From the UHGV virus genome UHGV-0268713: a stretch of DNA of 34,690 nt. The stretch is one strand, 5' to 3'. The translations under genes and the position numbers were made by a program. Under the pieces are notes generated by a model. That model was not told the DNA's origin. It was given only the letters and a program-made list of their open reading frames with translations, and did not search any database. Positions 3,645 to 34,375 of the stretch are shown piece after piece. Each line of letters opens with the position of its first letter. Position 1 is the stretch's first letter. The stretch comes from a virus.

Positions 3645-3753
3645 TTAATCCAACCCTCTCTGAAAATTAATGCCAGCAGATAAAGCCATGCTGAAACAGA
3701 GGCCAGGAATAAGTACCATCCTGACCATTTGCTCCAGTGCCTTAGCAGCACAC

Positions 3754-4002
3754 TCATGCCGCGTTGCTCACGGGACGATATACACGTTGCTGAACAGGAG
3801 GTTTTTTACCCTGGAACTCTGCCGGGCTTGCTGCCTGACGTTCATCAAGCCAACGCTCAACTTCATCACGGTTCCATGCGCAGCGTTTATCGGTGATATA
3901 CCAGCGTTTAGGAAATTCCCCTGCGCGCTCCATACGGTCGATAGTGCTCCATGACAGTGGCACCACCGCCAGGAGTTCCTTCTTACCTAATGCACCTTTC
4001 AT
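3754..4002 (-). CDS. AlpA-family DNA-binding protein (excisionase-like regulator)
   Basis: 82 aa; ELLAVVPLSWSTIDRMERAGEFPKRWYITDKRCAWNRDEVERWL matches the AlpA/Xis-type HTH pattern; GAGAGG Shine-Dalgarno upstream. Confidence 0.7.
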   Translation of the reverse strand: MKGALGKKELLAVVPLSWSTIDRMERAGEFPKRWYITDKRCAWNRDEVERWLDERQAASPAEFQGKKPPVQQRVYRPVSNAA

Positions 4003-4051
4003 AAATACCTCTCTTGGTTGCAGTGCGGCGCGCGTGGCGCCGCGGTGGTGG

Positions 4052-4933
4052 TTACATAGATGTTTCGTTTAATTCTTCCCGACGAACGCTGTAAACGTCG
4101 GTGGCTTTTGCCAGCAGTTCGTCATCATCTGAAAGTTTTTGTGCAATATATTTGTAAGCCTTATCCAGTTCGGAGACAGTGCTGTAATTCATCGCTGCGC
4201 TGGTAAAGGCCATCAGCATTTCTTCTGGATCACGGCTATCCGCTTTACGCGTTTGCTCATCAGGCTTTTTCACTGGTTTAGCGTTGATCAGACTGTTCAT
4301 TCCCGCAGCAGTAGTTGTTTGCGGAGTAATGTCTCGCTCAACGCGCGGTGCCGTTTCCTGTAATTCGTCAGGGGTGTAAACACCAAGAAGTACATCAGGA
4401 GCGTGCAGGCGAGCCCATCGTTTCGTGCAAAGATAGGCAAGTTGCTGGCGCGGATCCTGTTCCCACAATGGAGAGTTACGCACTCCGGCTTGCGCCATAC
4501 TGATGGTAAGCTCACGTGGTTCTGCTTCTCCTTTAAGGACTGCTGACACAGTTACCGTCAGATTCGGTGATTTATCTGTTTTGCCGTTAACATTCGACCA
4601 GTCACCGCTCCAGCGATAATTCAGGCGTGTCGCTAGCAGGCTGGAAGAGGATACGACCGCGTTTACCAACTGTGCTTCGTAGCCTAACGTTCCGTTTACC
4701 ACATGCGTTTTCTGCGCCACGGCGAAAGGGTTCATTCCCCACTGTGCCGCCTGCATGGTCACCGCCAGGCAATCGGCAGGTTTGCCTTCAAGATGTTTCG
4801 GTACAGTCGCTTTGCTTTGTGACATCAACTCAGCGAAACGCACCAGTTGATTCATGCCCTCGGGGCTGAAGATTGCCGCAGCAGTGCCTACAGTTGCGCC
4901 TGGTTGTGATGTGATTGCGATATCATTGCTCAT
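4052..4933 (-). CDS. Bet/RecT-family single-strand annealing protein
   Basis: 293 aa; AAQWGMNPFAVAQKTHVV and VERDITP resemble the lambda Bet motifs NQYGLNPW and ERDITP as recalled; lies in an operon with the exonuclease. Confidence 0.75.
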   Translation of the reverse strand: MSNDIAITSQPGATVGTAAAIFSPEGMNQLVRFAELMSQSKATVPKHLEGKPADCLAVTMQAAQWGMNPFAVAQKTHVVNGTLGYEAQLVNAVVSSSSLLATRLNYRWSGDWSNVNGKTDKSPNLTVTVSAVLKGEAEPRELTISMAQAGVRNSPLWEQDPRQQLAYLCTKRWARLHAPDVLLGVYTPDELQETAPRVERDITPQTTTAAGMNSLINAKPVKKPDEQTRKADSRDPEEMLMAFTSAAMNYSTVSELDKAYKYIAQKLSDDDELLAKATDVYSVRREELNETSM

Positions 4934-5751
4934 ACGTACATATCCTGTTTACGTGCCCAGTCAGGGCGTTTAATAATTTCCACTCCGCCCCACTCATCGT
5001 TGATGCGGCATTCGTGATAGGTATTCAGATCCCGGCGGAACAGAGCGTGACCGGCATCGACATCCGGCGCATCCAGCTCGAACACGCGTACCGGATACCG
5101 ACCACAATCAACGCTTTCGCTCACGGCAAGAAAGAAAAAACCATGCGGCTGACCAGTAACCCTCATTGCGCCTTCGCGGTACATTGCGTCCTGCACGTGG
5201 TAGCGGAATTCCTCGATGTGGAGTGCAAAACGGTCCATATCTGCAACCTTTTTCACGTCGACGATCACGTTGTGCTCGTTCAGCCATTTGTCTGGACGAA
5301 TGCGGCACAACTCACCAGTCTCTTCATCGTTCCAGTACATTGATGCTTCGCAGTAACCAGGTGCTTCCAGCATCCAGCGTGCCGCCGGGTGAGCCATTGC
5401 GCTATCACGCATCAGCTCCAGTTTCCGCCACTGCTCGGCATCAAGTACCGTAATCCCCATATCCGCTACATCACGAAGAAATGCTTCTTCGTCAGCTTTA
5501 CCTTGTTTCGTCCGACGATCGAACTTTGGTGAAACAATGAAGCGTTTGTCGAATTCTCCAGGTTCCAGAAGCAGACAGTGCAGAGCAGTACCCATGTCCA
5601 GTGCAGATTTCTTCTCTTCGTCTTCTGGTGCTGCCTGAACCCATTTAAGAAGCGCCGGATTCTTGGCAACCATGTCCAGTTGCGACTTACTCACGCCGTC
5701 ACCGGCGTGGTAGTCATCGTTGCTGATGTCGAAATAAATTCCCGGTTTCAT
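4930..5751 (-). CDS. PD-(D/E)XK exonuclease (YqaJ/RecE-like recombination exonuclease)
   Basis: 273 aa; N-terminal FDISNDDYHAG and a D...VDVKK motif; overlaps the annealing-protein gene by 4 nt. Confidence 0.75.
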   Translation of the reverse strand: MKPGIYFDISNDDYHAGDGVSKSQLDMVAKNPALLKWVQAAPEDEEKKSALDMGTALHCLLLEPGEFDKRFIVSPKFDRRTKQGKADEEAFLRDVADMGITVLDAEQWRKLELMRDSAMAHPAARWMLEAPGYCEASMYWNDEETGELCRIRPDKWLNEHNVIVDVKKVADMDRFALHIEEFRYHVQDAMYREGAMRVTGQPHGFFFLAVSESVDCGRYPVRVFELDAPDVDAGHALFRRDLNTYHECRINDEWGGVEIIKRPDWARKQDMYV

Positions 5752-6208: not shown

Positions 6209-6298
6209 TTACCTCGGTTTGTTACCGTTGAGGTAATGATTATGCGTATCTGGTTTGATGTCAATAGATATGAGTTAAAAAAATTACCCGTTAGGTAA
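6209..6298. promoter_or_regulatory. OL-like operator/promoter region
   Basis: Two perfect TTACC-N5-GGTAA palindromes (6222-6236, 6284-6298) plus a TTACC half-site at 6209-6213, between the repressor terminator and the first leftward early gene. Confidence 0.55.
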
Positions 6299-6355: not shown

Positions 6356-6940
6356 TTATTGTTTGTTTTTTTCGTTCTGGTTGATGACAAATTCAATGTA
6401 ACTTTCGATCTTTGCTTTCTCGGTTTCGGGTAACAATGCGTAGCGCGAGCGATCATAGTTAATGGTCGCAGGGTCGTGCGGGTGAATCAGTAATTCATAG
6501 CCGTGACGCCCGAATGCGGATGCAACATTCTCCAGGGTGGAAATGGAAACGCTGACCTCATTGTTTAACAGACGGCTGATTGTCACCTGGGCGACGCCGG
6601 ATGCGCGGTGTAGTTTTCCCTGCGTTGAAAGGTCGCGGCTTTCGCTCATCCAGCGTTCCAGGTTGTGAGCCGCCAGCTGACCTATATCGCTCGGGCCGAC
6701 AGGCTGAAAACCCTCCTGAGAAAGCGAGCGATCAATATCAAGCCAGTTACGGGGTTTATTGGCGGCAGCTTCAATTTTTCGTGCAACCTGGTCGCCGATA
6801 ACCTTCTTGCCAAGAGCCCAGCGGTTTACCAGATTTGCCTGAGTTCCAAGTTTTTCTGCCATCCGCGTCTGAACACCATTGAATTCACGGTCGATCAAGT
6901 CGTTGAGATTTTGCCTGCGGACGTCCTGGATACTTTTCAT
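6356..6940 (-). CDS. Phage immunity repressor, double XRE-type HTH, no LexA-like peptidase domain
   Basis: 194 aa; two HTH-like segments (QTRMAEKLGTQANLVNRWALGKK... and GVAQVTISRLLNNEVSVSISTLENVASAFG); divergent from the Cro-like gene with operators between them. Confidence 0.8.
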   Translation of the reverse strand: MKSIQDVRRQNLNDLIDREFNGVQTRMAEKLGTQANLVNRWALGKKVIGDQVARKIEAAANKPRNWLDIDRSLSQEGFQPVGPSDIGQLAAHNLERWMSESRDLSTQGKLHRASGVAQVTISRLLNNEVSVSISTLENVASAFGRHGYELLIHPHDPATINYDRSRYALLPETEKAKIESYIEFVINQNEKNKQ

Positions 6941-6995: not shown

Positions 6996-7058
6996 TTACC
7001 CAACAGGTAAATGCACCTCATAGGTAACTATCCTTGATTTTTGTTACCTTATGGGTGA
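6996..7058. promoter_or_regulatory. OR-like tripartite operator region between repressor and Cro-like gene
   Basis: One perfect TTACCCAACAGGTAA (6996-7010) and two imperfect copies (GCACC-N5-GGTAA at 7013-7027; TTACC-N5-GGTGA at 7044-7058). A TTGATT -35-like hexamer sits at 7035-7040. Confidence 0.55.
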
Positions 7059-7380: not shown

Positions 7381-7395
7381 GTACCTCAAAGGTAA
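7381..7395. promoter_or_regulatory. Imperfect operator-like site
   Basis: GTACCTCAAAGGTAA (14 of 15 to motif) just downstream of the terminator and upstream of the replication genes, in an AT-rich stretch. Confidence 0.3.
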
Positions 7396-9277: not shown

Positions 9278-9359
9278 TATAATTACCTGTGAGGTAATAA
9301 ATTATTCTAAAATCTATTGATTTCGTGTCTTATGTGGTTTTTAATTACCTTAGGGGTAA
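9278..9359. promoter_or_regulatory. Promoter region with two perfect operator motifs
   Basis: TTACCTGTGAGGTAA (9283-9297), overlapped by a TATAAT hexamer at 9278-9283, and TTACCTTAGGGGTAA (9345-9359), which overlaps the ribosome-binding site of the gene starting at 9363. TTGATT at 9319-9324. Confidence 0.5.
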
Positions 9360-12669: not shown

Positions 12670-12882
12670 ATGCCAAAAATACGCTACGACCTTGAAGATA
12701 TGAGAGATAACTCAGCAAATTTTCCGAAAGAGGTTAAATTTCTCATGCATAAGTATGGTTGCGCCAGGAGGGATATAGTTATCGACAGTCAGCACCCTTG
12801 CGGCGAGGATGTAATTTTCATTCGCGGTAAATGGGAAGGGTATCTTGACGAGAGTTTTTACGATGAATTTGATGGACTTTGA
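12670..12882 (+). CDS. Hypothetical small protein (70 aa)
   Basis: ATG at 12670 with a GAAGGTG Shine-Dalgarno; the ORF track gives 12649-12882. Confidence 0.5.
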   Translation: MPKIRYDLEDMRDNSANFPKEVKFLMHKYGCARRDIVIDSQHPCGEDVIFIRGKWEGYLDESFYDEFDGL

Positions 12883-12924
12883 ATACTGCCGCCAACTATG
12901 GCGGCTTTATTTTGCATGGTACTA

Positions 12925-12957
12925 TTACCACAACGGTAACTATTACCACGGTGGTTA
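12925..12957. promoter_or_regulatory. Tandem operator motifs immediately upstream of terS
   Basis: Perfect TTACCACAACGGTAA (12925-12939) and imperfect TTACC-N5-GGTTA (12943-12957), the latter ending at the terS start codon. Confidence 0.45.
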
Positions 12958-13553
12958 TGATGCCTGCTGAACCTAAAACCTATAAACGCAAATCAACGCA
13001 ATTTAAGCCACTAACAGCAATGCAGGAGGCTTATTGCCAGTCATACATCAAAACGCCTGAAAATCAGACTCAGGCTGCGATTAACGCAGGATTCTCCCCA
13101 AATACAGCGGCAGTTAAAGCCAGTGTCATGATGCGCGATGAACGCATTCAGAAACGGATTGCCGAGCTGATGGAAGAGCGCAACAAACGAATGCGCGTCA
13201 GTGCTGATTACGTTCTCATGCGCCTGGTGGAGATCGACCAGATGGACGTGATCGACATCCTCAACGACGATGGGAGCCTTAAGCCAATCCGCGAGTGGCC
13301 GAAAATCTGGCGCACTACGCTTAGTGGCTTTGATCTGTCATCGACCATCATGAACATGAACGAGGATTCGATAGAGACAATCCTCAAAAAAATTAAATGG
13401 CCTGACAAGGTGAAGAACCTTGAGCTGATTGGTAAGCATGTTGATGTCAACGCGTTCAAAGAACGTCTGGATGTTAATGTGAATGTGACAATTGCTGATC
13501 GCATAGCAGCAGCCAGGAAGCGACTCAAAGAACGTCAGGATGGTAATCAGTGA
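12957..13553 (+). CDS. Terminase small subunit
   Basis: ATG at 12957 (the ORF track's upstream extension encodes a low-complexity TITTTVTITT stretch); HTH-like TAMQEAYCQSYIKTPENQTQAAINAGFSP; directly upstream of the large subunit. Confidence 0.7.
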   Translation: MMPAEPKTYKRKSTQFKPLTAMQEAYCQSYIKTPENQTQAAINAGFSPNTAAVKASVMMRDERIQKRIAELMEERNKRMRVSADYVLMRLVEIDQMDVIDILNDDGSLKPIREWPKIWRTTLSGFDLSSTIMNMNEDSIETILKKIKWPDKVKNLELIGKHVDVNAFKERLDVNVNVTIADRIAAARKRLKERQDGNQ

Positions 13554-15025
13554 CAGATACAGCGTTATCTCCTGAAGAGCAGTTAATCGAGGATATTGCA
13601 GGGTTCACTCACGATCCGCTTGGCTATGCCCTCTATGCGTTCCCATGGGGGGAAGAGGGGACTGAACTGGCACATGCCACCGGCCCACGTCAGTGGCAGG
13701 CTGATGCGTTCCGAGAGATACGTGATCACCTGCAGAATCCAGAGACGCGCTATCAGCCGCTTATGCTGGCACGCGCTTCTGGTCACGGTATTGGTAAATC
13801 CGCATTCATCTCAATGCTGATCAACTGGGGCATGTCCACTTGCGAGGATTGTAAGGTCGTGGTGACCGCCAACACCGACAACCAGCTACGAACGAAGACC
13901 TGGCCGGAAATTATCAAGTGGTCGAACCTTGCTATCACGAAAGACTGGTTTACCTGTACCGCTACCGCGATGTACAGCAATGATCCTGGGCACGACAAGC
14001 GGTGGCGGGCTGACGCAATCCCCTGGTCTGAGCACAACACTGAGGCATTCGCAGGACTACACAACGAGCGCAAACGCATCATCGTGGTATTCGATGAAGC
14101 GTCGAACATTGCGGATCTGGTGTGGGAAGTTGCTGAGGGTGCGCTTACGGACGAAGACACTGAGATTATCTGGGTGGCGTTCGGAAACCCTACACGTAAC
14201 ACCGGGCGTTTCCGCGAATGTTTCCGCAAATATAAACACCGCTGGAAAACTGCGCAGATTGACAGCCGGACGGTGGAAGGCACTAACAAACAGCAGTTGC
14301 AGAAATGGGTTGATGACTACGGGGAAGACAGCGACTTCGTTAAAATCCGTGTGCGCGGCATATTCCCTGATGCATCTGAATTGCAGTTTATCCCTACCGG
14401 TCTTACTGATGAGGCAATGAAACGGGTGGTAACCGCTGCGCAGGTGGCGCATGCTCCGGTGATAATCGGTGTTGACCCGGCATATTCAGGCGTTGATGAC
14501 GCGGTGATATACCTGCGGCAGGGGCTACACAGTAAGGTGCTGTGGACTGGCAACAAGACCACCGACGATCTGATTATGGCGAAGCGTATCGCTGACTTTG
14601 AAGACCAGTACCATGCTGACGCGGTGTTCATCGACTTCGGTTACGGAACCGGTCTGAAGTCAATCGGTGATGGCTGGGGTCGTACATGGCAACTTGTTCC
14701 GTTCGGTGGTGCGTCAACTGACCCTCAGATGCTCAACAAGCGCGGGGAGATGTTCAACTCATGTAAGACATGGCTGAGGCTGGGCGGCATGCTGGATGAC
14801 CAGGAAACAGCGGACGACCTGTCGGCGGCAGAGTACAAAGTTCGAGTGGACGGTAAAATCGTTATCGAACCGAAGGAAGATATCAAGGAGCGGCTTGGGC
14901 GTTCTCCTGGTAAAGGCGATGCGCTACTGCTGACGTTTGCGTTCCCTGTGTCGAAGCGTCTGCGAATTCCCGGGCAGCAGAACCAGCAAGGCAAGGCCAT
15001 CACAGATTACGATCCCTATGCTTAA
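13550..15025 (+). CDS. Terminase large subunit
   Basis: 491 aa; Walker A-like GHGIGKS, Walker B-like IIVVFDEAS, C-terminal acidic nuclease-like region (IGVDPAYSGVDDA). Confidence 0.85.
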   Translation: MTDTALSPEEQLIEDIAGFTHDPLGYALYAFPWGEEGTELAHATGPRQWQADAFREIRDHLQNPETRYQPLMLARASGHGIGKSAFISMLINWGMSTCEDCKVVVTANTDNQLRTKTWPEIIKWSNLAITKDWFTCTATAMYSNDPGHDKRWRADAIPWSEHNTEAFAGLHNERKRIIVVFDEASNIADLVWEVAEGALTDEDTEIIWVAFGNPTRNTGRFRECFRKYKHRWKTAQIDSRTVEGTNKQQLQKWVDDYGEDSDFVKIRVRGIFPDASELQFIPTGLTDEAMKRVVTAAQVAHAPVIIGVDPAYSGVDDAVIYLRQGLHSKVLWTGNKTTDDLIMAKRIADFEDQYHADAVFIDFGYGTGLKSIGDGWGRTWQLVPFGGASTDPQMLNKRGEMFNSCKTWLRLGGMLDDQETADDLSAAEYKVRVDGKIVIEPKEDIKERLGRSPGKGDALLLTFAFPVSKRLRIPGQQNQQGKAITDYDPYA

Positions 15026-15075
15026 TCCGCTGGTGGGGATAATGTCGTTGATATCCTCTGGTGAGGATAAAACAA

Positions 15076-15095
15076 AGCCAGCTCATAGGCTGGCT
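15076..15095 (-). terminator. Terminator hairpin between convergent genes
   Basis: AGCCAGC-TCATAG-GCTGGCT; T-rich on the minus strand (TTGTTTTAT), weaker on the plus strand. Confidence 0.45.
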
Positions 15096-15099
15096 GTTT

Positions 15100-15111
15100 G
15101 TGACATGTCAC
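15100..15111. promoter_or_regulatory. 12-bp perfect palindrome GTGACATGTCAC, copy 2
   Basis: Exact 12-mer followed by GGTGTTAT, as in copy 1; sits between the terminase large-subunit stop and the reverse-oriented gene. Confidence 0.4.
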
Positions 15112-15115
15112 GGTG

Positions 15116-15448
15116 TTATTTCGGTAGATTGTGTTTGGCATTCGACTCGTCTATCACGTAACGCATTGCAGTTCGACCGAGATTACCAGGATCTTCATGC
15201 AGACTCACTCGTGCCTTTAGGAGCACACATTCAGCCTTGACATAGTTTGCTGGAATTATTCCTACCTCGGCATTTTTAAATGCCTCCTTCACCGCCTCAC
15301 CGTTGTACTGACCGCCAAGCAACTCTGTACATGTCAGGTTGTTATGGATAATTGCAAGGAGATCTTTAATCTCTTCACGCAGGTTTACAATCGCCATCGC
15401 GGCATTGATAGCTGCGGCATAGCGCTCAGCTGCAGTCTTCTCTTTCAT
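15116..15448 (-). CDS. Hypothetical protein, reverse-oriented accessory gene between terminase and portal
   Basis: ATG at 15448 with an AAGGTGA Shine-Dalgarno; 110 aa; opposite strand to the flanking late genes; preceded by hairpins. Confidence 0.55.
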   Translation of the reverse strand: MKEKTAAERYAAAINAAMAIVNLREEIKDLLAIIHNNLTCTELLGGQYNGEAVKEAFKNAEVGIIPANYVKAECVLLKARVSLHEDPGNLGRTAMRYVIDESNAKHNLPK

Positions 15449-15648
15449 GATTTTCACCTTAAAAAAATGCCCGGACGAACCGGGCGAACTGGAAGCAATG
15501 AGTTATGCCTTCCGTGGCTGTACTGGTTTACAGCATGAAGTCATCGCAATGGCGTCCTGCTGTAAAAAGGGCGGTGATAGCCCTTCAAGGGAAACCATCA
15601 CCGCCAAGCCCCTGGAACTTCTGGCATCACGGTCCTTAGGCGTGATTC

Positions 15649-15725
15649 TGGCGTGGCATGCAGGATTCGAACCTGCGACCAACCGCTTAGAAGGCGGTTG
15701 CTCTGTCCAACTGAGCTAATGCCAC
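15649..15725 (-). tRNA. tRNA-Arg (anticodon UCU)
   Basis: Minus-strand sequence GTGGCATTAGCTCAGTTGGACAGAGCAACCGCCTTCTAAGCGGTTGGTCGCAGGTTCGAATCCTGCATGCCACGCCA folds by eye into a cloverleaf: 7-bp acceptor stem, D-arm GCTC/GAGC, anticodon stem ACCGC/GCGGT with loop CUUCUAA, T-arm GCAGG-TTCGAAT-CCTGC, encoded CCA. Confidence 0.85.
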
Positions 15726-16047
15726 AACGCTGAGAGCACTTAGCCTGTTAAGGCGCCACACTTTGTCGCGGCTCCATAAATGCTCTCATCGTTGTACCCT
15801 CGTCTCTTCCGAGGCGTCACACCGAATCGCCGGGATGGTGAATCCCCGTGCGCGGAATAAAACCGCTCGACTTGCACATTCCGGCTACCTGGTTCGTTTG
15901 CCCGAGCAAGGGAGGGGGCCCCTTAAACGTATCCAGACCGCTATCGGCGCATGTGCCATACGCCGTACTGCTCAAAATAAAAGCTCACTCCACCTGTTCA
16001 ATTTAACGACAAGCCAGTCAGGTTAATAACCGGAATGAATCATTTAC

Positions 16048-16062
16048 TTACCTGAAAGGTAA
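16048..16062. promoter_or_regulatory. Perfect operator motif upstream of the portal region
   Basis: TTACCTGAAAGGTAA, about 90 bp upstream of the ORF at 16153 and about 310 bp upstream of the portal gene. Confidence 0.45.
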
Positions 16063-16152
16063 TAATTCGTGCGTTAAATGTCAACTATCTACGATAAATA
16101 AATCATATGTGGTTAAATTGGTAATAATTAAATTGCGTACGGAGTCATTGAT

Positions 16153-16359
16153 ATGTGCATGGGTAGCTCACCGTCAGTGCCTGCAACACCAGAAGTTCAG
16201 GCAGCACCACAGGAGCAGGATGCCGCCGTTGTTGATGCCCGCGACGAAGAAACTCGTCGCCGTCGCGCTGCTGCTGGTCGTAGTTCTACGCTGCTTACCG
16301 GTTCTCAGGGCGACACATCAACCGCTAATACCAGCGGTAAAACGCTGCTTGGTCAGTAA
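16153..16359 (+). CDS. Hypothetical small protein (68 aa)
   Basis: ATG preceded by the 12-nt CGGAGTCATTGA that also precedes the portal start codon; Ala/Arg-rich, low complexity, so coding status is uncertain. Confidence 0.4.
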   Translation: MCMGSSPSVPATPEVQAAPQEQDAAVVDARDEETRRRRAAAGRSSTLLTGSQGDTSTANTSGKTLLGQ

Positions 16360-16373
16360 CCGGAGTCATTGAA

Positions 16374-18053
16374 ATGGCGGAAACAACTAAAGAGCGATTG
16401 AACAAACAGTTCGCACAACTTGAAAGCGAGCGTCAGTCGTTCGAGCCGCACTGGCGCGAGTTGAGTGATTACATCAACCCGCGTGGTTCCCGCTTTCTGA
16501 CTTCTGAGGTCAACCGTAACGATCGACGCAATACACGCATTATTGATTCGACCGGGACTATGGCGGCGCGCACTCTCGCCAGCGGCATGATGTCAGGCAT
16601 CACAAGCCCCGCGCGTCCGTGGTTTCGCCTGGCTACGCCAGATCCTGAAATGATGGATTATGGCCCTGTTAAGTTGTGGCTTGAGGCGGTGCAGAACCGC
16701 ATGAACGATATGTTCAATAAGTCGAATCTCTATCAGTCGCTGCCGCAGTTATACGGAAGCCTCGGCACATACAGCACTGGCGCAATGGCGGTGCTGGAGG
16801 ATGACGAGGACATCATTCGTACAATGCCATTCCCGATAGGAAGTTACTACCTGGCTAACTCACCTCGTGGCAATGTGGACACCTGTTTTCGCAAGTTCTC
16901 TATGACTGTTCGTCAGCTTGTTCAGGAGTTCGGACTAAATAACGTCAGCGAATCCGTAAAAAGCATGTGGGAAAGCGGCACCTACGAGAAGTGGATTGAA
17001 GTGATGCATTCGGTTTACCCGAACATTGACCGCGATACATCGAAGCTGGATAGCAAGAACAAGCCATTCAAATCGGTTTATTACGAGGTTGGTGGCGATA
17101 ACGACAAGTTGTTGCGTGAGTCCGGATTTGATGAGTTTCCAATTATGGCTCCGCGCTGGGAAGTTAATGGCGAAGATGTTTATGGATCATCATGCCCGGG
17201 TATGCTGGCGCTTGGACCTGTTAAGGCATTGCAACTTCTCCAGAAGCGCAAGTCGCAGTTGATTGATAAAGCCACCAATCCGCCGATGGTTGCTCCGACT
17301 TCCCTCAAGAATCAGCGCGCCTCCCTTCTTCCTGGCGACATCACGTATATCGATCAGATTACTGGTCAGGATGGCTTCAGGCCTGCTTATCTGGTTAACC
17401 CCAGTACAGCAGATCTGGTAGCAGACATTCAGGACACTCGTCAAATCATTAACAGCGCCTACTTTGTCGATCTGTTCATGATGTTGCAGAACATCAATAC
17501 CCGCTCGATGCCTGTTGAAGCAGTGATCGAAATGAAAGAAGAAAAACTTCTGATGTTGGGGCCGGTTCTGGAGCGTCTGAACGACGAATGTCTTAATCCT
17601 CTCATTGACCGCGCTTTCTCGATGATGGTGCGTAAAAACATGCTGCCGCCACCGCCTGACGCGATGGAAGGTATGCCCCTGAAGGTCGAATACATTTCCG
17701 TCATGGCTCAGGCGCAGAAGTCTATCGGCCTGTCCAGTCTGGCGTCTACGGTCAACTTCATTGGTCAACTTGCGCAAGCGAAACCAGAAGCTCTCGACAA
17801 ACTCAACGTTGATCAGGCGATCGATGCATTCGCTGATATGTCCGGAGTGTCTCCAACCGTCATTGTTCCGCAGGAACAGGTTGAGCAGGCTCGCCAGCAA
17901 CGGGCACAGCAACAACAGCAGCAACAAATGATGGCGATGGGGATGGCGGCGGCACAGGGTGCCAAGACGCTAAGCGAAGCTAAAACTTCGGATCCGAGTG
18001 TTTTGTCAGCTATGGCGAATGCAGTTAGTGGTCAGGGTGGGCAATCACAATGA
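16374..18053 (+). CDS. Portal (head-to-tail connector) protein, podovirus/T7-like
   Basis: 559 aa; lies after the terminase genes; Gln-rich C-terminal tail; N-terminus consistent with T7-type connector proteins as recalled. Confidence 0.8.
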   Translation: MAETTKERLNKQFAQLESERQSFEPHWRELSDYINPRGSRFLTSEVNRNDRRNTRIIDSTGTMAARTLASGMMSGITSPARPWFRLATPDPEMMDYGPVKLWLEAVQNRMNDMFNKSNLYQSLPQLYGSLGTYSTGAMAVLEDDEDIIRTMPFPIGSYYLANSPRGNVDTCFRKFSMTVRQLVQEFGLNNVSESVKSMWESGTYEKWIEVMHSVYPNIDRDTSKLDSKNKPFKSVYYEVGGDNDKLLRESGFDEFPIMAPRWEVNGEDVYGSSCPGMLALGPVKALQLLQKRKSQLIDKATNPPMVAPTSLKNQRASLLPGDITYIDQITGQDGFRPAYLVNPSTADLVADIQDTRQIINSAYFVDLFMMLQNINTRSMPVEAVIEMKEEKLLMLGPVLERLNDECLNPLIDRAFSMMVRKNMLPPPPDAMEGMPLKVEYISVMAQAQKSIGLSSLASTVNFIGQLAQAKPEALDKLNVDQAIDAFADMSGVSPTVIVPQEQVEQARQQRAQQQQQQQMMAMGMAAAQGAKTLSEAKTSDPSVLSAMANAVSGQGGQSQ

Positions 18054-31765: not shown

Positions 31766-32197
31766 CTATTCAGGTATTTCAATTCCAAAACCATCTGCAT
31801 CCCATGAGTTTTCACAGATGATGTAACCTAGTTCATTGAGCTTATTAAATGTTTTTTCAAAGATGATCTGGTAATCATTATCTGCAAGTGATTCCAGTTC
31901 AAGGTCATTAAGGTTTATATAAAAACTTGTATGTCCAAGTGTTATTTTTTTATTGATTTCATTAAAAGTTCTTTTGAAAATAATATTTGATATTTCATGC
32001 CGTGCATTGTTTGCAATAATTTTTGCTTCATAAGCAGAAATTACGTCATCTTCATGAATATCTTTCAGAAAGCTGGTGTCAAGACGTTGTACTATTTCAG
32101 CGTTCATTGATCGCTTATTGGCTTTTGCAGAAATTTCTATTTTTTCTTTTACTTCAACGGGAAGTCTGATCCTTAGTTGTGGATCTTCTCTGCTCAT
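31766..32197 (-). CDS. Mnt-like ribbon-helix-helix repressor fused to a C-terminal domain of unknown function
   Basis: ATG at 32197 with a GGTGAAG Shine-Dalgarno. N-terminus MSREDPQLRIRLPVEVKEKIEISAKANKRSMNAEIVQRL closely parallels P22 Mnt (MARDDPHFNFRMPMEVREKLKFRAEANGRSMNSELLQIV, recalled from memory). The remaining ~100 aa are AT-rich-encoded with no recognised domain. Confidence 0.7.
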   Translation of the reverse strand: MSREDPQLRIRLPVEVKEKIEISAKANKRSMNAEIVQRLDTSFLKDIHEDDVISAYEAKIIANNARHEISNIIFKRTFNEINKKITLGHTSFYINLNDLELESLADNDYQIIFEKTFNKLNELGYIICENSWDADGFGIEIPE

Positions 32198-32243
32198 GTT
32201 CTTCACCAAATATTGAGTTACTTGCAATGATTGAAGTATGCCT

Positions 32244-32303
32244 CACCGTGTGCTTGACATCAATGACGCACGGTGTGACAATTGTTTTGCCCCACGGTGG
32301 GGC
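32244..32303. promoter_or_regulatory. immI-like divergent promoter/operator region
   Basis: TTGACA (32255-32260), 17-nt spacer, GACAAT (32278-32283) reading rightward; flanking inverted repeat CACCGTG (32244-32250) / CACGGTG (32269-32275); palindrome GCCCCACGGTGGGGC (32289-32303), whose core CCACGGTGG resembles the P22 Mnt operator as recalled. Confidence 0.45.
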
Positions 32304-32317
32304 TAAGGAGATATGAA

Positions 32318-32485
32318 ATGCAAAAAGCAAAAGAGATGTGTCAACGACGAGTTCGTTTTCCGGACGATGTGAAGTTAGCTATTGAAAGAAATGGCGAAAA
32401 AGAATGCCGAAAGTTCAATACAGAGATTATCTATCAGCTGAGGAAAGTGTATGGACTCACTGGTGAGAAGAATAGCGTGGCATAA
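32318..32485 (+). CDS. Arc-like ribbon-helix-helix repressor
   Basis: ATG at 32318 with an AAGGAG Shine-Dalgarno; 55 aa; RVRFPDDVKLAIERNGEKECRKFNTEIIYQL fits the Arc/Mnt RHH pattern; immediately upstream of the antirepressor. Confidence 0.6.
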   Translation: MQKAKEMCQRRVRFPDDVKLAIERNGEKECRKFNTEIIYQLRKVYGLTGEKNSVA

Positions 32486-32557
32486 AACAGCGAAGCCCAA
32501 CGGTGGCCAGACCGTCAGGGCTTCAGTATCGTAAAACTACGTATAGGAATTAACGAC
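32483..32557 (-). ncRNA. Candidate sar-like antisense RNA covering the antirepressor ribosome-binding site
   Basis: Minus-strand sigma70-like promoter TTGATA (32592-32587), 17 nt, TATACT (32569-32564); hairpin GAAGCCC-N19-GGGCTTC (32492-32524) followed on the minus strand by GCTGTTTTA. Predicted transcript of about 70 nt. Confidence 0.3.
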
Positions 32558-33502
32558 ATGACGAGTATAGCAACAGCGGTATCTACTATCAACGTGCCAT
32601 TCCACGGCGCAGAACTTTATGTTGTCAATCACAACGGAGAACCGTACACCCCAATGAAACCTATCGTTGAAGGCATGGGTATGGATTGGGCTTCACAGTT
32701 TACGAAAATGAAGCAGCGGTTTAAAACCTGCATTGTGAAAATCACAATGCAGCTTCCTGGGGATGAACAGCGCCGTGAGATTATTTGTTTGGCACTTCGC
32801 AAACTTGCTGGCTGGTTGCAAACCATCAGCCCTAACAAAGTCCGCCCTGAAATCCGCGACAAGGTAATCCAGTATCAGGAAGAGTGTGACGATGTGCTCT
32901 ACGAGTACTGGACTAAAGGCCATGTGGTTAACCCACGCAAAGCTAAAAAGGCGTTGCCGGGTAAAATAACCACTGAACAGCAGGAAGCCATTAAACAACT
33001 CGTCATGAGTCGCGGTCAGTCTCTACCAAAAGAAAAACAGGCTAAGGCGATGATCACCATGTGGTCGTCACTGAAATCTCATTTTGGCTGTTCGTACAAA
33101 GAAATTGGTGAAGATCAATTTGCCGAAGCGTTGTCTCTTGTTGCTCGGGTTCCGCTTGAAGGGGAGTATCTCCCTGCTGGATCTGCATCAGAGAATGATG
33201 AAGTGGCAGTCAAGATGTTAGATGCGCTTCGTGAGGCAATTAAAACACAGACAAAATGTTATGGTTATCCACTGAAGCCCGGCTACCGCAGCCTGATTCA
33301 TTCGCCGTCTGGTGTTCTCGGCCTGACGGAGAACTCACTGCTGATGAATTTGCTGAACCAGTTACAGGAAGACGGGCATGACGTATCGGGCGCGGCGGCG
33401 GAACTGACCACCATGTTCTGCTACATCGTCGGTGTGAGTAAATGCCTGCGTGATATCCAGACCCACGCGGAGTACATCAACGACAAGGCAGGGTTCTTCT
33501 GA
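32558..33502 (+). CDS. Antirepressor paralog 2 (AntA-like N-terminal domain plus KilAC-type C-terminal domain)
   Basis: 314 aa; its C-terminal ~75 aa are identical in protein to antirepressor 1; sits downstream of the arc-like gene as in P22 immI. Confidence 0.85.
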   Translation: MTSIATAVSTINVPFHGAELYVVNHNGEPYTPMKPIVEGMGMDWASQFTKMKQRFKTCIVKITMQLPGDEQRREIICLALRKLAGWLQTISPNKVRPEIRDKVIQYQEECDDVLYEYWTKGHVVNPRKAKKALPGKITTEQQEAIKQLVMSRGQSLPKEKQAKAMITMWSSLKSHFGCSYKEIGEDQFAEALSLVARVPLEGEYLPAGSASENDEVAVKMLDALREAIKTQTKCYGYPLKPGYRSLIHSPSGVLGLTENSLLMNLLNQLQEDGHDVSGAAAELTTMFCYIVGVSKCLRDIQTHAEYINDKAGFF

Positions 33503-33807: not shown

Positions 33808-33830
33808 ACAAAAAAGCCCGCGCTGCGGGC
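33808..33830 (-). terminator. Rho-independent terminator for the accessory operon
   Basis: GCCCGC-GCT-GCGGGC hairpin (33816-33830) followed on the minus strand by TTTTTTGT. Confidence 0.55.
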
Positions 33831-34375
33831 TATTCCTTCCATTTATCAGAAAAAAGATCTTCTTCTAAAGGCATTGGTTCTGTTTTTGTTTTCTCAAAGA
33901 ATTGATAACTGATAGTGATTGCTGCCTCTTTAAACTCTTCTTGCTCAGTTATGTTGTGAGCATCTGCGTCAACAAAAAACATAACCAGCGCATCACGATT
34001 GTGATTTACCGAATAAACTAAAAAGCAATCACTTGTTGGTATGCATTTTACTTGTACAGACGCTATATTTTTCCATGCATCCCAAGATGATTTTTTACCA
34101 GTGTGTTTTTTATCACTATCTTCTGGAATATAGTCTTGGTTATCGACATGAGTATGCCTGACATTTAGTTTAAGCATTTCTGTCGGACGAGCAAATGCAG
34201 CATCTTTACCAAGAGATGGATGGTATCCCGTTTTCCAATACTGGGTAAAGGCATCAGATACTTTCTTCAGCTCAAGATCAGATGCACAAAGGGCCGAGAA
34301 ATTTTGCGTATGCAATACTCGACCCTTATATCTGACAATTTGATTTTTATCATTCTGCGACGCAGACGAACTCAT
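33830..34375 (-). CDS. Hypothetical protein (181 aa), AT-rich accessory gene
   Basis: ATG at 34375 with an AAGGA Shine-Dalgarno; low GC; no confidently recognised domain. Weak resemblance of HTH and LVY...H segments to YafO-type toxins is unverified recall. Confidence 0.55.
   Translation of the reverse strand: MSSSASQNDKNQIVRYKGRVLHTQNFSALCASDLELKKVSDAFTQYWKTGYHPSLGKDAAFARPTEMLKLNVRHTHVDNQDYIPEDSDKKHTGKKSSWDAWKNIASVQVKCIPTSDCFLVYSVNHNRDALVMFFVDADAHNITEQEEFKEAAITISYQFFEKTKTEPMPLEEDLFSDKWKE

Follow-up and report, generated by a model that had tools for sequence, protein, structure and literature searches.

Regulatory RNAs that are cut from phage leader transcripts by RNase P include the C4 RNAs of P1 and P7, the CI RNA of P4 and IsrK; these are about 77-87 nt long and act as antisense regulators of antirepressor genes. 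The lambda nut site consists of a single-stranded boxA (CGCUCUUA or UGCUCUUUA), then a boxB hairpin, and works with the N protein. Phage-borne genes for tRNA-Arg(UCU) are represented by argN and argO of Stx phages and by the T4 tRNA-Arg, and the classical morons have their own promoter and are expressed in the lysogen. The put RNA of phage HK022 measures about 70 nt. It is reported to work in cis and without protein as an antiterminator RNA, in the leaders of both pL and pR (Nat Commun 2022, PMC9378689), and the accessible parts of the STnc100 and PasD papers give no function or biogenesis for STnc100. Here we describe an island at positions 15026-16152 of the UHGV virus genome UHGV-0268713 (34,690 nucleotides; this whole stretch is called the window), in which a structured RNA stands at the head of what is very probably a separate leftward transcription unit. 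The island is an already-known feature of phiV10-type phages and its tRNA is ordinary; the paper on ZX5 (vB_EcoP_ZX5) mentions one tRNA (PMC9782041). The novelty lies in the RNA: it is widespread, supported by covariation and without a match in Rfam 15, and it is found together with early promoters and with a tRNA or a tRNA-like module.

The stretch 15726-15967, read from the minus strand, very probably encodes a genuine structured RNA, one that appears to belong to no catalogued family (alignments A2 and A4, RNAalifold). A preliminary description of the locus had treated 15726-16152 as a single GC-rich stretch of about 430 bp without a convincing open reading frame (ORF), in which a structured RNA might lie. 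GC-rich is right for the first part only, in which the GC content is 0.53-0.60 (15700 to about 15975); the remainder is AT-rich (0.30-0.41 from about 15975 to 16150) and holds the promoter and operator region. The absence of a convincing ORF was confirmed by finding only short overlapping ORFs in 15726-16152 and by indels among the relatives that are not multiples of three, and the idea of a structured RNA was borne out by a fold with covariation. In the alignment of relatives, near-invariant blocks upstream of the tRNA are separated by variable insertions. The parts of the RNA are H1 with the invariant loop UAUGGCACAU, H2, a variable arm, the invariant 19-mer GGUAGCCGGAAUGUGCAAG (15871-15889), H3 with the loop AYUCACCAU, two proposed pseudoknots, H4 with the loop GAAGAGA and a long 3' helix, H5. 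The latter is formed by UGCAACGAUGAGAGCAUU...AGUGCUCUCAGCGUUG, and its 3' strand finishes at tRNA position +1 (GUU|G, where the G is tRNA +1). Compensatory variants of H5 are many, for example GAUGACU/AGUCAUC and GGUAGCUCAC/GUGAGCUAC.

The covariation was evaluated in two sets of sequences, set A2 with 28 copies that are less than 93% identical pairwise, and a second set of 35 core sequences that includes P1 and species-representative genomes. RNAalifold on A2 gave five helices with 14 compensatory pairs. In a nine-helix model with the two pseudoknots (52 pairs), 98.6% were paired in A2, compared with 30-43% when the partners were slid by 1-3 columns; changes on both sides were found at 15 pairs and in 78 cells, and none of 500 shuffles reached the observed values. 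In the second set 98.8% were paired and 8 pairs had compensatory changes, with slid controls at 29-43% across the sets. G-U pairs are frequent and would be A-C mismatches on the opposite strand, which indicates that the RNA is read from the minus strand, as is the tRNA. Of the two pseudoknots, the smaller (CACC/GGUG) is backed by a single covarying pair, which changes from C-G to A-U in three sequences. The 320-nt segment 15726-16045, which contains the RNA, has a minimum free energy (MFE) z-score of -3.1. A covariance model of the 156-position core (R1) found a single copy in the window, with 139.7 bits.

The RNA family appears to be undescribed. The Infernal/Rfam scan proposed in the preliminary description recovered the tRNA and gave no family for the noncoding stretch: with Rfam 15, neither strand of 15726-15967 had a match at E<=10. 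At the homologous loci there was likewise no Rfam match on the RNA, only matches to neighbouring STnc100, C4, isrK and tRNA sequences. A search of 8 million papers with the exact 19-mer returned no relevant one, topic searches (STnc100, the ban operon of P1, put, leaders of phage tRNAs) turned up no description of this RNA, and no inspected phage record annotates it. Several other identities were considered and rejected. RNase P RNA, tmRNA, 6S RNA and SRP RNA were set aside because the motifs expected of them are absent and no Rfam model matched. A GTG-start protein right after the RNA ('VVNAQADA...') was discarded, as its frames diverge at once among relatives, its lengths are inconsistent and what is conserved in it forms a hairpin whose stem changes in a compensatory way (GCGCA/UGCGC to GCACA/UGUGC).

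There is some likeness to a nut site. The H5 3' strand reads UGCUCUCA in the window (15728-15745) and UGCUCUUU in many copies, similar to the boxA of lambda and of rrn operons, and the loop of H4 (15800-15816) starts with GAAGA, like boxB of lambda nutL. Because the stretch that looks like boxA is paired, is situated 3' of the hairpin and covaries away in some copies (AGUCAUC, GAGCUAC), we consider this a resemblance only. A Pfam search of the window's ORFs revealed no antiterminator of the N or Q type.

The RNA occurs far beyond the window. Its 19-mer (GGTAGCCGGAATGTGCAAG, 15871-15889 in minus sense) is present at at least 120 loci in IMG/VR, and among 212 loci with the 19-mer, 98 had a tRNA-Arg downstream, 16 a tRNA(CAU) upstream and 99 no tRNA nearby. 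At 34 IMG/VR loci the similarity to the window (about 82% identity) is confined to 15966-15722 and the rest is unrelated, so that the RNA module has borders of its own. About a third of the complete Escherichia coli genomes carry it (1840 of 5426, with 1920 places in chromosomes and 554 in plasmids), the majority of the E. coli records listed having no PGAP gene call there, and so do 19 more species-representative genomes of Enterobacterales. Carriers include phage P1, Stx2-converting phages and many Enterobacterales prophages. Lambdoid carriers (mEp460, cdtI, Stx2c phages, Ayreon and many IMG/VR prophages) have the RNA immediately past the cI terminator, at the head of the early-left operon, and it starts, as estimated from the sequences, about 10 to 130 nt after pL-type promoters with operator palindromes; the mEp460 record has no N gene annotated. 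The estimated distance from the predicted start is about 5 nt in Klebsiella oxytoca. One locus, L024 (IMG/VR UViG_2791355294_000005), has two cores on the same strand about 800 bp apart (4000-4154 and 4807-4959, with 132.8 and 159.7 bits), and is the only one in which we saw a tandem pair.

In P1, P7, D6 and SJ46 an unannotated copy without H5 is situated between trnI and ban, in the C1-controlled ban operon. The P1 core lies at 2500-2675 of our locus L222 (NC_005856), and nhmmer gave weak matches to H5-type hairpins at 982-1067, 1207-1301 and 1490-1560. These weak matches, to H5 alone, are found downstream of trnT and in the vicinity of plp/upl, so that H5 may be a processing hairpin in its own right that can be reused.

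At other loci, what comes after the same H5 junction is either a different tRNA-like sequence or an RNA shaped like a tRNA. In K. oxytoca a tRNA-like module takes the place of the tRNA-Arg between identical flanks (GUU|G ... AAUCACGCC). The tRNA-shaped RNA, of about 95-130 nt, begins with GUGGUGA, has D-arm-like and T-arm-like hairpins and ends with (U)CACCAC-AACC/AACA; it was located at 3690-3790 in the K. oxytoca locus (L248, CP033844) and at 2744-2875 in mEp460 (L223), where it reads GUGGUGA...UCACCAC-AACA. In another locus, L147, it reaches the Rfam family STnc100 (RF02076) with 47.7 bits against a gathering score of 47. Judging from these sequences, the prophage small RNAs of the STnc100 type may be tRNA derivatives freed by RNase P.

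The RNA has largely been lost in epsilon15. A deletion between 13-bp direct repeats TTCCCTTGATGCT has removed the greater part of it from this phage, together with the tRNA and one half of terminator 1 (described below). In SPN9TCW the repeat is present twice (1630-1642 and 2024-2036 of locus L004), in the variable arm of the RNA and in the loop of terminator 1. Epsilon15 (2228-2295 of locus L002) keeps one repeat and the 394 bp between the two are gone, so that it is an exact deletion derivative.

We are confident that 15026-16152 is a separate leftward transcription unit inserted between the terminase large subunit and portal genes, probably repressor-controlled and early. The preliminary description had placed it inside the late operon; this hides that it would be a transcription unit of its own, with a copy of the phage's operator motif over its promoter. 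With the same confidence we read the order on the minus strand as a promoter with an operator, a spacer of about 80 nt, the RNA of 242-246 nt, tRNA-Arg(UCU), two terminators, a ribosome-binding site with a swappable gene, and a terminator shared with terL. The parts are arranged in the same way in phiV10, SPN9TCW, Tyrion, Klebsiella phages and prophages of K. oxytoca.

By direct reading, the unit has a putative leftward promoter of the sigma-70 type at 16056-16084 (minus strand), with -35 TTGACA at 16084-16079, a spacer of 17 nt and -10 TACCTT at 16061-16056. A consensus scan missed it because the -10 fits the consensus at only three of six positions (T1, A2 and T6). The two hexamers and their spacing are conserved, with a variable spacer sequence, in phiV10, SPN9TCW, epsilon15, Klebsiella phages and K. 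oxytoca. An operator-type palindrome, TTACCTGAAAGGTAA (16048-16062, both strands), overlaps the -10 and the predicted start. The window contains 12 copies of the pattern TTACC-N5-GGTAA where 0.47 would be expected, an excess of about 25-fold, and most of the other copies surround the repressor gene (6222/6284, 6996/7044, 7381 and 9283/9345). The epsilon15 GenBank record annotates the homologous site as a repressor site beside an IHF site. Because an operator copy lies over the leftward promoter, the unit is probably early and silent in the lysogen, rather than a moron expressed there.

The copies were located at 136-150, 6222-6298, 6996-7058, 7381-7395, 9283-9359, 12925-12957, 16048-16062 and 34590-34604. 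Pairs flank the gene of the helix-turn-helix (HTH) repressor and precede replication genes, and single copies lie near the integrase gene, within the start of the small terminase gene (terS) and near the right end. This looks like the full operator set of the phage, more scattered than that of lambda.

To the right of the promoter, 16085-16152 forms a nearly invariant AT-rich block upstream of the gp3-like gene (alignment A1, GC 0.30-0.33, unstranded). It is presumably a regulatory region for the rightward structural genes, with the IHF site of the epsilon15 annotation. On the other side, the spacer of about 80 nt between the predicted start and the RNA varies, and is absent or different in SPN9TCW and K. 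oxytoca, in which the RNA follows 5-35 nt after the -10. A terminator-pattern scan found a small hairpin with a weak T tail in this spacer (16014-16033, minus strand).

The tRNA-Arg(UCU) with an encoded CCA occupies 15649-15725 on the minus strand, as the preliminary description had proposed. ARAGORN placed the anticodon tct at position 35 and Rfam RF00005 gave 73.3 bits against a gathering score of 29, covering model positions 1-71 of 71. The acceptor stem is intact (GTGGCAT...ATGCCAC-G-CCA), with U at position -1. ARAGORN found the same tRNA in phiV10, typing phage 9, SPN9TCW, Klebsiella phage ST512-KPC3phi13.3 and BUCT711, and it is annotated in some records; some relatives have no tRNA and others have a tRNA-like RNA instead. 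A supply of rare AGA codons had been suggested as its role. In 37 ORFs of the window AGA made up 7.4 per 1000 codons, compared to 1.2 in 42 genes of K-12 (about 6-fold, Fisher p 5.5e-15), and AGG 3.7 compared to 0.68 (about 5-fold, Fisher p 1.1e-7), figures that are weakened by a mechanical choice of the window ORFs and a K-12 sample of 42 genes only. The enrichment fits the suggestion and is compatible with codon supply by the phage tRNA.

Downstream of the tRNA the terminator scan found two sites. Terminator 1 (15564-15605, minus strand) has a 14-pair stem from 15605 to 15570, GGCGGTGATGG...CTATCACCGCC followed by CTTTTT, and sits 44 nt past the 3' end of the tRNA. Its stem is compensatory, with GAUGG/CUAUC in the window and GGCAG/CUGAC in the Salmonella and Klebsiella relatives. 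Terminator 2 (15461-15485, minus strand), GCCCGGTTCGTCCGGGC followed by T7, has a stem from 15485 to 15469 with 6 G-C pairs; after the stem, ATTTTTTT is continuous with AAGGTGAAAATCATG, the ribosome-binding region of the 110-aa gene. It is conserved in epsilon15 and SPN9TCW with a compensatory change from GG/CC to AC/GU, it is annotated as a rho-independent terminator in the epsilon15 GenBank record, and K. oxytoca has the same arrangement. A weak RyhB-like Rfam match at 15461-15516 (22 bits against 55) proved to be just terminator 2. A third terminator-like hairpin, AGCCAGCCTATGAGCTGGCT with TTGTTTT (15076-15095, minus strand, stem from 15095 to 15076), lies 3' of the 110-aa gene and beyond the terL stop (15025), in the right-hand conserved flank of the cassette slot. 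The phiV10 GenBank record has a terminator annotated at the equivalent place, and 15026-15120 is 92.6% identical to phiV10 and kept in other relatives, while the neighbouring gene is not.

Judged by hairpin and T-run, the sites 15605-15570, 15485-15469 and 15095-15076 are intrinsic terminators and are conserved in relatives. With their T-runs on the minus strand, they are predicted to terminate leftward transcription. The preliminary description had seen two hairpins with T-tracts, which exist, but had assigned them to the plus strand, which was wrong; it had also called the second attenuator-like and adjacent to the ribosome-binding site, and this label is apt because T7 continues into AAGGTGAAAATCATG. 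In 14900-16400 there were 4 terminator-like sites, compared to 1.7 +/- 1.3 in shuffled sequences. Between terminators 1 and 2 lies a further conserved hairpin, TTTACAGCA...TGCTGTAAA (15527-15566, minus strand), detected as an inverted repeat by blastn against itself and by folding; it is present in the MFE and centroid folds and kept in relatives, including epsilon15, which has no tRNA.

The gene behind the terminators (15116-15448, minus strand, ATG start, from the ORF list) encodes the 110-aa protein that the preliminary description had noted between terL and the portal gene as an accessory insertion; it is indeed cleanly swapped among relatives. Its Shine-Dalgarno sequence AGGTG lies at 15455-15459, and the GTG start of the 113-aa version given by the ORF tool (15457) falls within it. 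The protein matches the PHROG group phrog_27507 (3.5e-75), which is listed as function-unknown, and has a 73%-identical homologue in the same slot of K. oxytoca prophages. The homology search that had been recommended thus yielded this group and a few homologues and no function: there was no Pfam match at E<=0.1, none in PADLOC or in a PDB sequence search, no tblastn match in 50,697 phage records, and only 15 clusters of relatives among 5.8 billion proteins. An AlphaFold (AF2) model is helical with a pLDDT of 55, too poor for a fold search.

The borders of the slot are sharp. The alignment of the window with phiV10 breaks at 15120 and resumes at 15454, with flanks that are 92.6% and 98.7% identical, and conservation on the left side extends through terminator 2 and the Shine-Dalgarno sequence to the start codon. 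In phiV10 and epsilon15 the slot holds a Phage_gp49_66 protein (PF13876; 6e-35 and 4e-37), in SPN9TCW an unrelated 168-aa protein, in BUCT711 a 263-aa coiled-coil protein and in Klebsiella phage ST512-KPC3phi13.3 (1983-2504 of locus L005) a protein with a Tad2-like anti-Thoeris domain (PF11195, 4.2e-26). The 110-aa protein matched neither PF11195 nor PF13876 in the Pfam search. No promoter-like site was found between the tRNA and the 110-aa gene (15460-15648), by reading or by a promoter scan, and a cassette gene without its own promoter would be expressed only via read-through. From its setting, it is most likely an early accessory gene and possibly one for anti-defence. The Tad2-like occupant raises the thought that the slot may generally house early counter-defence genes in epsilon15-like phages.

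We suggest that the unit works as follows. Upon infection or induction, the repressor would leave the operator and leftward transcription would start. The first part of the transcript would fold into the conserved RNA, the fold itself being supported by covariation, and RNase P would cut at tRNA +1, after the U and at the end of H5, to free a discrete RNA and the tRNA, which would raise the capacity for decoding AGA and AGG. Terminators 1 and 2 would stop most transcripts, and the cassette gene would be reached by read-through only. The RNA may act in cis, making the polymerase resistant to termination or shielding it from Rho across the untranslated stretch and the terminators. We favour the cis role because two strong terminators precede a gene that is maintained and exchanged, and because no N- or Q-type protein was detected. 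Taken as a whole, this account of an early unit, RNase P release and cis read-through stands at an even balance in our judgement. Of its parts, the release of RNA and tRNA by RNase P is rather probable from the position of the junction, and the cis role is put forward tentatively.

Several points weigh against this account. The promoter, the start, the RNase P cleavage and the read-through of the terminators are all deduced from sequence, and the -10 hexamer is so weak that the consensus scan made no call. The larger pseudoknot, GCACAU/AUGUGC, is invariant but for one mismatch; being invariant it carries no covariation information and is unproven. No link between the 110-aa protein and an anti-defence family could be detected. 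Epsilon15 is viable despite the loss of the tRNA and most of the RNA, so the unit is dispensable for laboratory growth. Cis antitermination in particular has to face the presence of one copy per phage and none in the rightward early operon; a second copy, which would make a left and right pair of antiterminators, was not found in the window or in mEp460. The P1 copy is about 2.3 kb from the ban promoter and lacks H5, no intrinsic terminator was detected in mEp460 between the RNA and the first downstream gene, and no similarity to HK022 putL was found by sequence or by model.

Alternatively, the RNA may be a stand-alone early RNA that acts in trans, for which the RNase P cut would define a helix-protected 3' end, just as the 3' end of MALAT1 is set by the tRNA-like mascRNA, and which would bind a factor of the host or the phage and might serve as a decoy or inhibitor in host takeover or counter-defence. 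We consider this possible, at about the same modest level of likelihood as the cis role. One copy per phage is what would be expected of a gene rather than of a cis site required in each operon, and the borders of the module are sharp regardless of context. Its loops and junctions are invariant across Enterobacterales phages that are otherwise about 70% identical, and H5 ends exactly at the cleavage site whatever follows. In K. oxytoca, where the RNA begins a few nucleotides from the predicted start, the promoter and RNase P together would give a discrete RNA, and repressor-controlled early promoters provide a timing typical for takeover or anti-defence. Against a trans role, no partner is known or predictable, the orientation and the position at the head of the operon are always kept, which a trans-acting gene would not need, and the P1 copy has no H5 and lies inside an mRNA just upstream of ban. 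A broader proposal, no firmer than the cis role, is that the RNA is the founding member of an undescribed class of phage riboregulators, pseudoknotted and of about 170-250 nt, which would be the first product of early promoters under repressor control, trimmed by RNase P at the adjoining tRNA or tRNA-like module, and would act without phage protein, by read-through of terminators as an unrelated second answer to the task of HK022 put, or by neutralisation of a host factor as infection begins. Such a class, if the proposal holds, would span epsilon15-like, lambdoid and P1-like phages of Enterobacterales.

It is unlikely that the RNA is only a passive precursor leader, which presents the tRNA or tRNA-like RNA to RNase P and shields the untranslated transcript from RNase E and Rho. 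The RNA always adjoins a tRNA or a tRNA-like module, long hairpins are common processing sites in phage early transcripts (the epsilon15 annotators predicted an RNase III site here), and in epsilon15 the RNA and the tRNA disappeared in one deletion. However, tRNA leaders of E. coli need no such structure, and a passive leader does not explain why the 19-mer, the loops and the pseudoknot pair are kept across three unrelated phage backbones, or why the RNA is kept in K. oxytoca, Tyrion and lambdoid phages in which no true tRNA follows. A site that acts as DNA at 15726-15967 (for packaging, recombination or protein binding), or a small protein gene there, is very improbable. An 87-aa plus-strand ORF (15763-16026) and shorter ORFs do overlap the block, annotators of mEp460 and Ayreon called hypothetical proteins there, and the AT-rich flank does have protein-binding sites (the operator, and those of the epsilon15 annotation). 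Neither version would account for compensatory changes that keep the pairing in five helices, for abundant G-U pairs that are tolerated on one strand only, or for indels that are not multiples of three and are located in helix-capping loops, and PGAP left most of the listed E. coli records without a gene call. The degenerate second tRNA of the preliminary description is the least credible of all, since, despite a T-arm-like GGTTCAATTCCAG in the variable insert of H5 in SPN9TCW-type copies and STnc100-type tRNA-shaped modules that stand in for the tRNA in other phages, ARAGORN reported one tRNA only, the Rfam tRNA model had no further match in 15000-16400 at E<=10, and the covariation-supported fold is not a cloverleaf.

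The window as a whole (34.7 kb) represents a temperate podovirus or a prophage that resembles epsilon15 and is of the phiV10 type (genus Uetakevirus). Three quarters of its 15000-16400 segment match, with 97-99% identity, the corresponding DNA of phiV10, TL-2011b, ZX5, the O157 typing phages 9 and 10 and others; the island interval without the 110-aa gene is 98.7% identical to phiV10, and in Salmonella and Klebsiella relatives the island is recognisable at 70-82% identity. The integrase gene lies at 193-1443, the HTH repressor gene at 6356-6940 (minus strand), and the genes of the small and large terminase subunits at 12879-13553 and 13550-15025. To the right of the island follow the gene of the 68-aa gp3-like protein (16153-16359) and the portal gene (16374-18053; Head-tail_con, 6e-188). 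The gp3-like protein belongs to phrog_831, corresponds to epsilon15 gp3, has an Arg-rich centre (RRRRAAAGR) and adjoins the portal gene upstream in all relatives.

Other small RNAs and regulators were seen in the window. A sar antisense RNA (RF00262, 45.2 bits) at 32489-32556 on the minus strand stands beside genes for an Arc-like repressor and a P22-type antirepressor (31766-32227 and 32558-33502), so that 31766-33502 resembles a second immunity region like immI of P22 in an epsilon15-like phage. At 2174-2263 on the minus strand, sRNA-Xcc1 (RF02221, 62.9 bits against a gathering score of 53) adjoins an AntA/AntB-type antirepressor gene (1476-2162). An ORF near the right end (33830-34402, minus strand) has a weak match to the YafO toxin (PF13957, 25.8 bits against a cut-off of 25).

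If the RNA acts on transcription, it would represent a new, RNA-only route to the early programme for temperate phages without N; a trans-acting RNA would instead be an early product common among phages and directed at a host target. The shared leader ties phage tRNA genes and STnc100-type genes together and may explain how these modules are expressed and exchanged. The gene behind the terminators marks an early cassette slot that is worth screening for anti-defence functions.

Among the islands of the phiV10 type (phiV10, TL-2011b, typing phages 9 and 10, ZX5), the flanks, tRNA, terminators, RNA and promoter with operator are 97-99% identical to those of the window, and the difference lies in the slot, which holds a Phage_gp49_66 gene in phiV10 and epsilon15 and the phrog_27507 gene in the window. 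The likeness to HK022 put consists in an RNA that heads repressor-controlled early operons, in its position in the pL leader of mEp460 and in the terminators downstream of it in the window. It differs from put in its size of about 246 nt and in its single copy per phage in place of a left and a right put, and in the HK022 immunity region the best nhmmer match was 16 nt long (E 0.19) and R1 found nothing below E 5.9. STnc100 (RF02076) and PasD are related to the locus in another manner: the STnc100-like module is the downstream neighbour of the RNA, in the place of the tRNA-Arg, and not the RNA itself, and the window has a true tRNA and no STnc100 match. Like C4, CI and IsrK, the RNA belongs to regulated early phage transcripts and would be released in the manner of a tRNA, and copies of C4 and isrK occur in the same lambdoid immunity regions; unlike them, it is three times larger, is not matched by the Rfam models of C4 and isrK and has no evident antisense target. 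With other phage-borne tRNA-Arg(UCU) genes the tRNA shares its anticodon and the rationale of decoding AGA and AGG, codons that are rare in the host and enriched in the phage, but in the window it is joined to a conserved structured leader, and tandem terminators and then a cassette gene come after it. The slot itself resembles other cassette slots of temperate phages in having a single short gene between conserved flanks that is swapped among relatives, and it differs from morons in that the 110-aa gene lacks its own promoter and is placed downstream of two terminators, within a unit under operator control.

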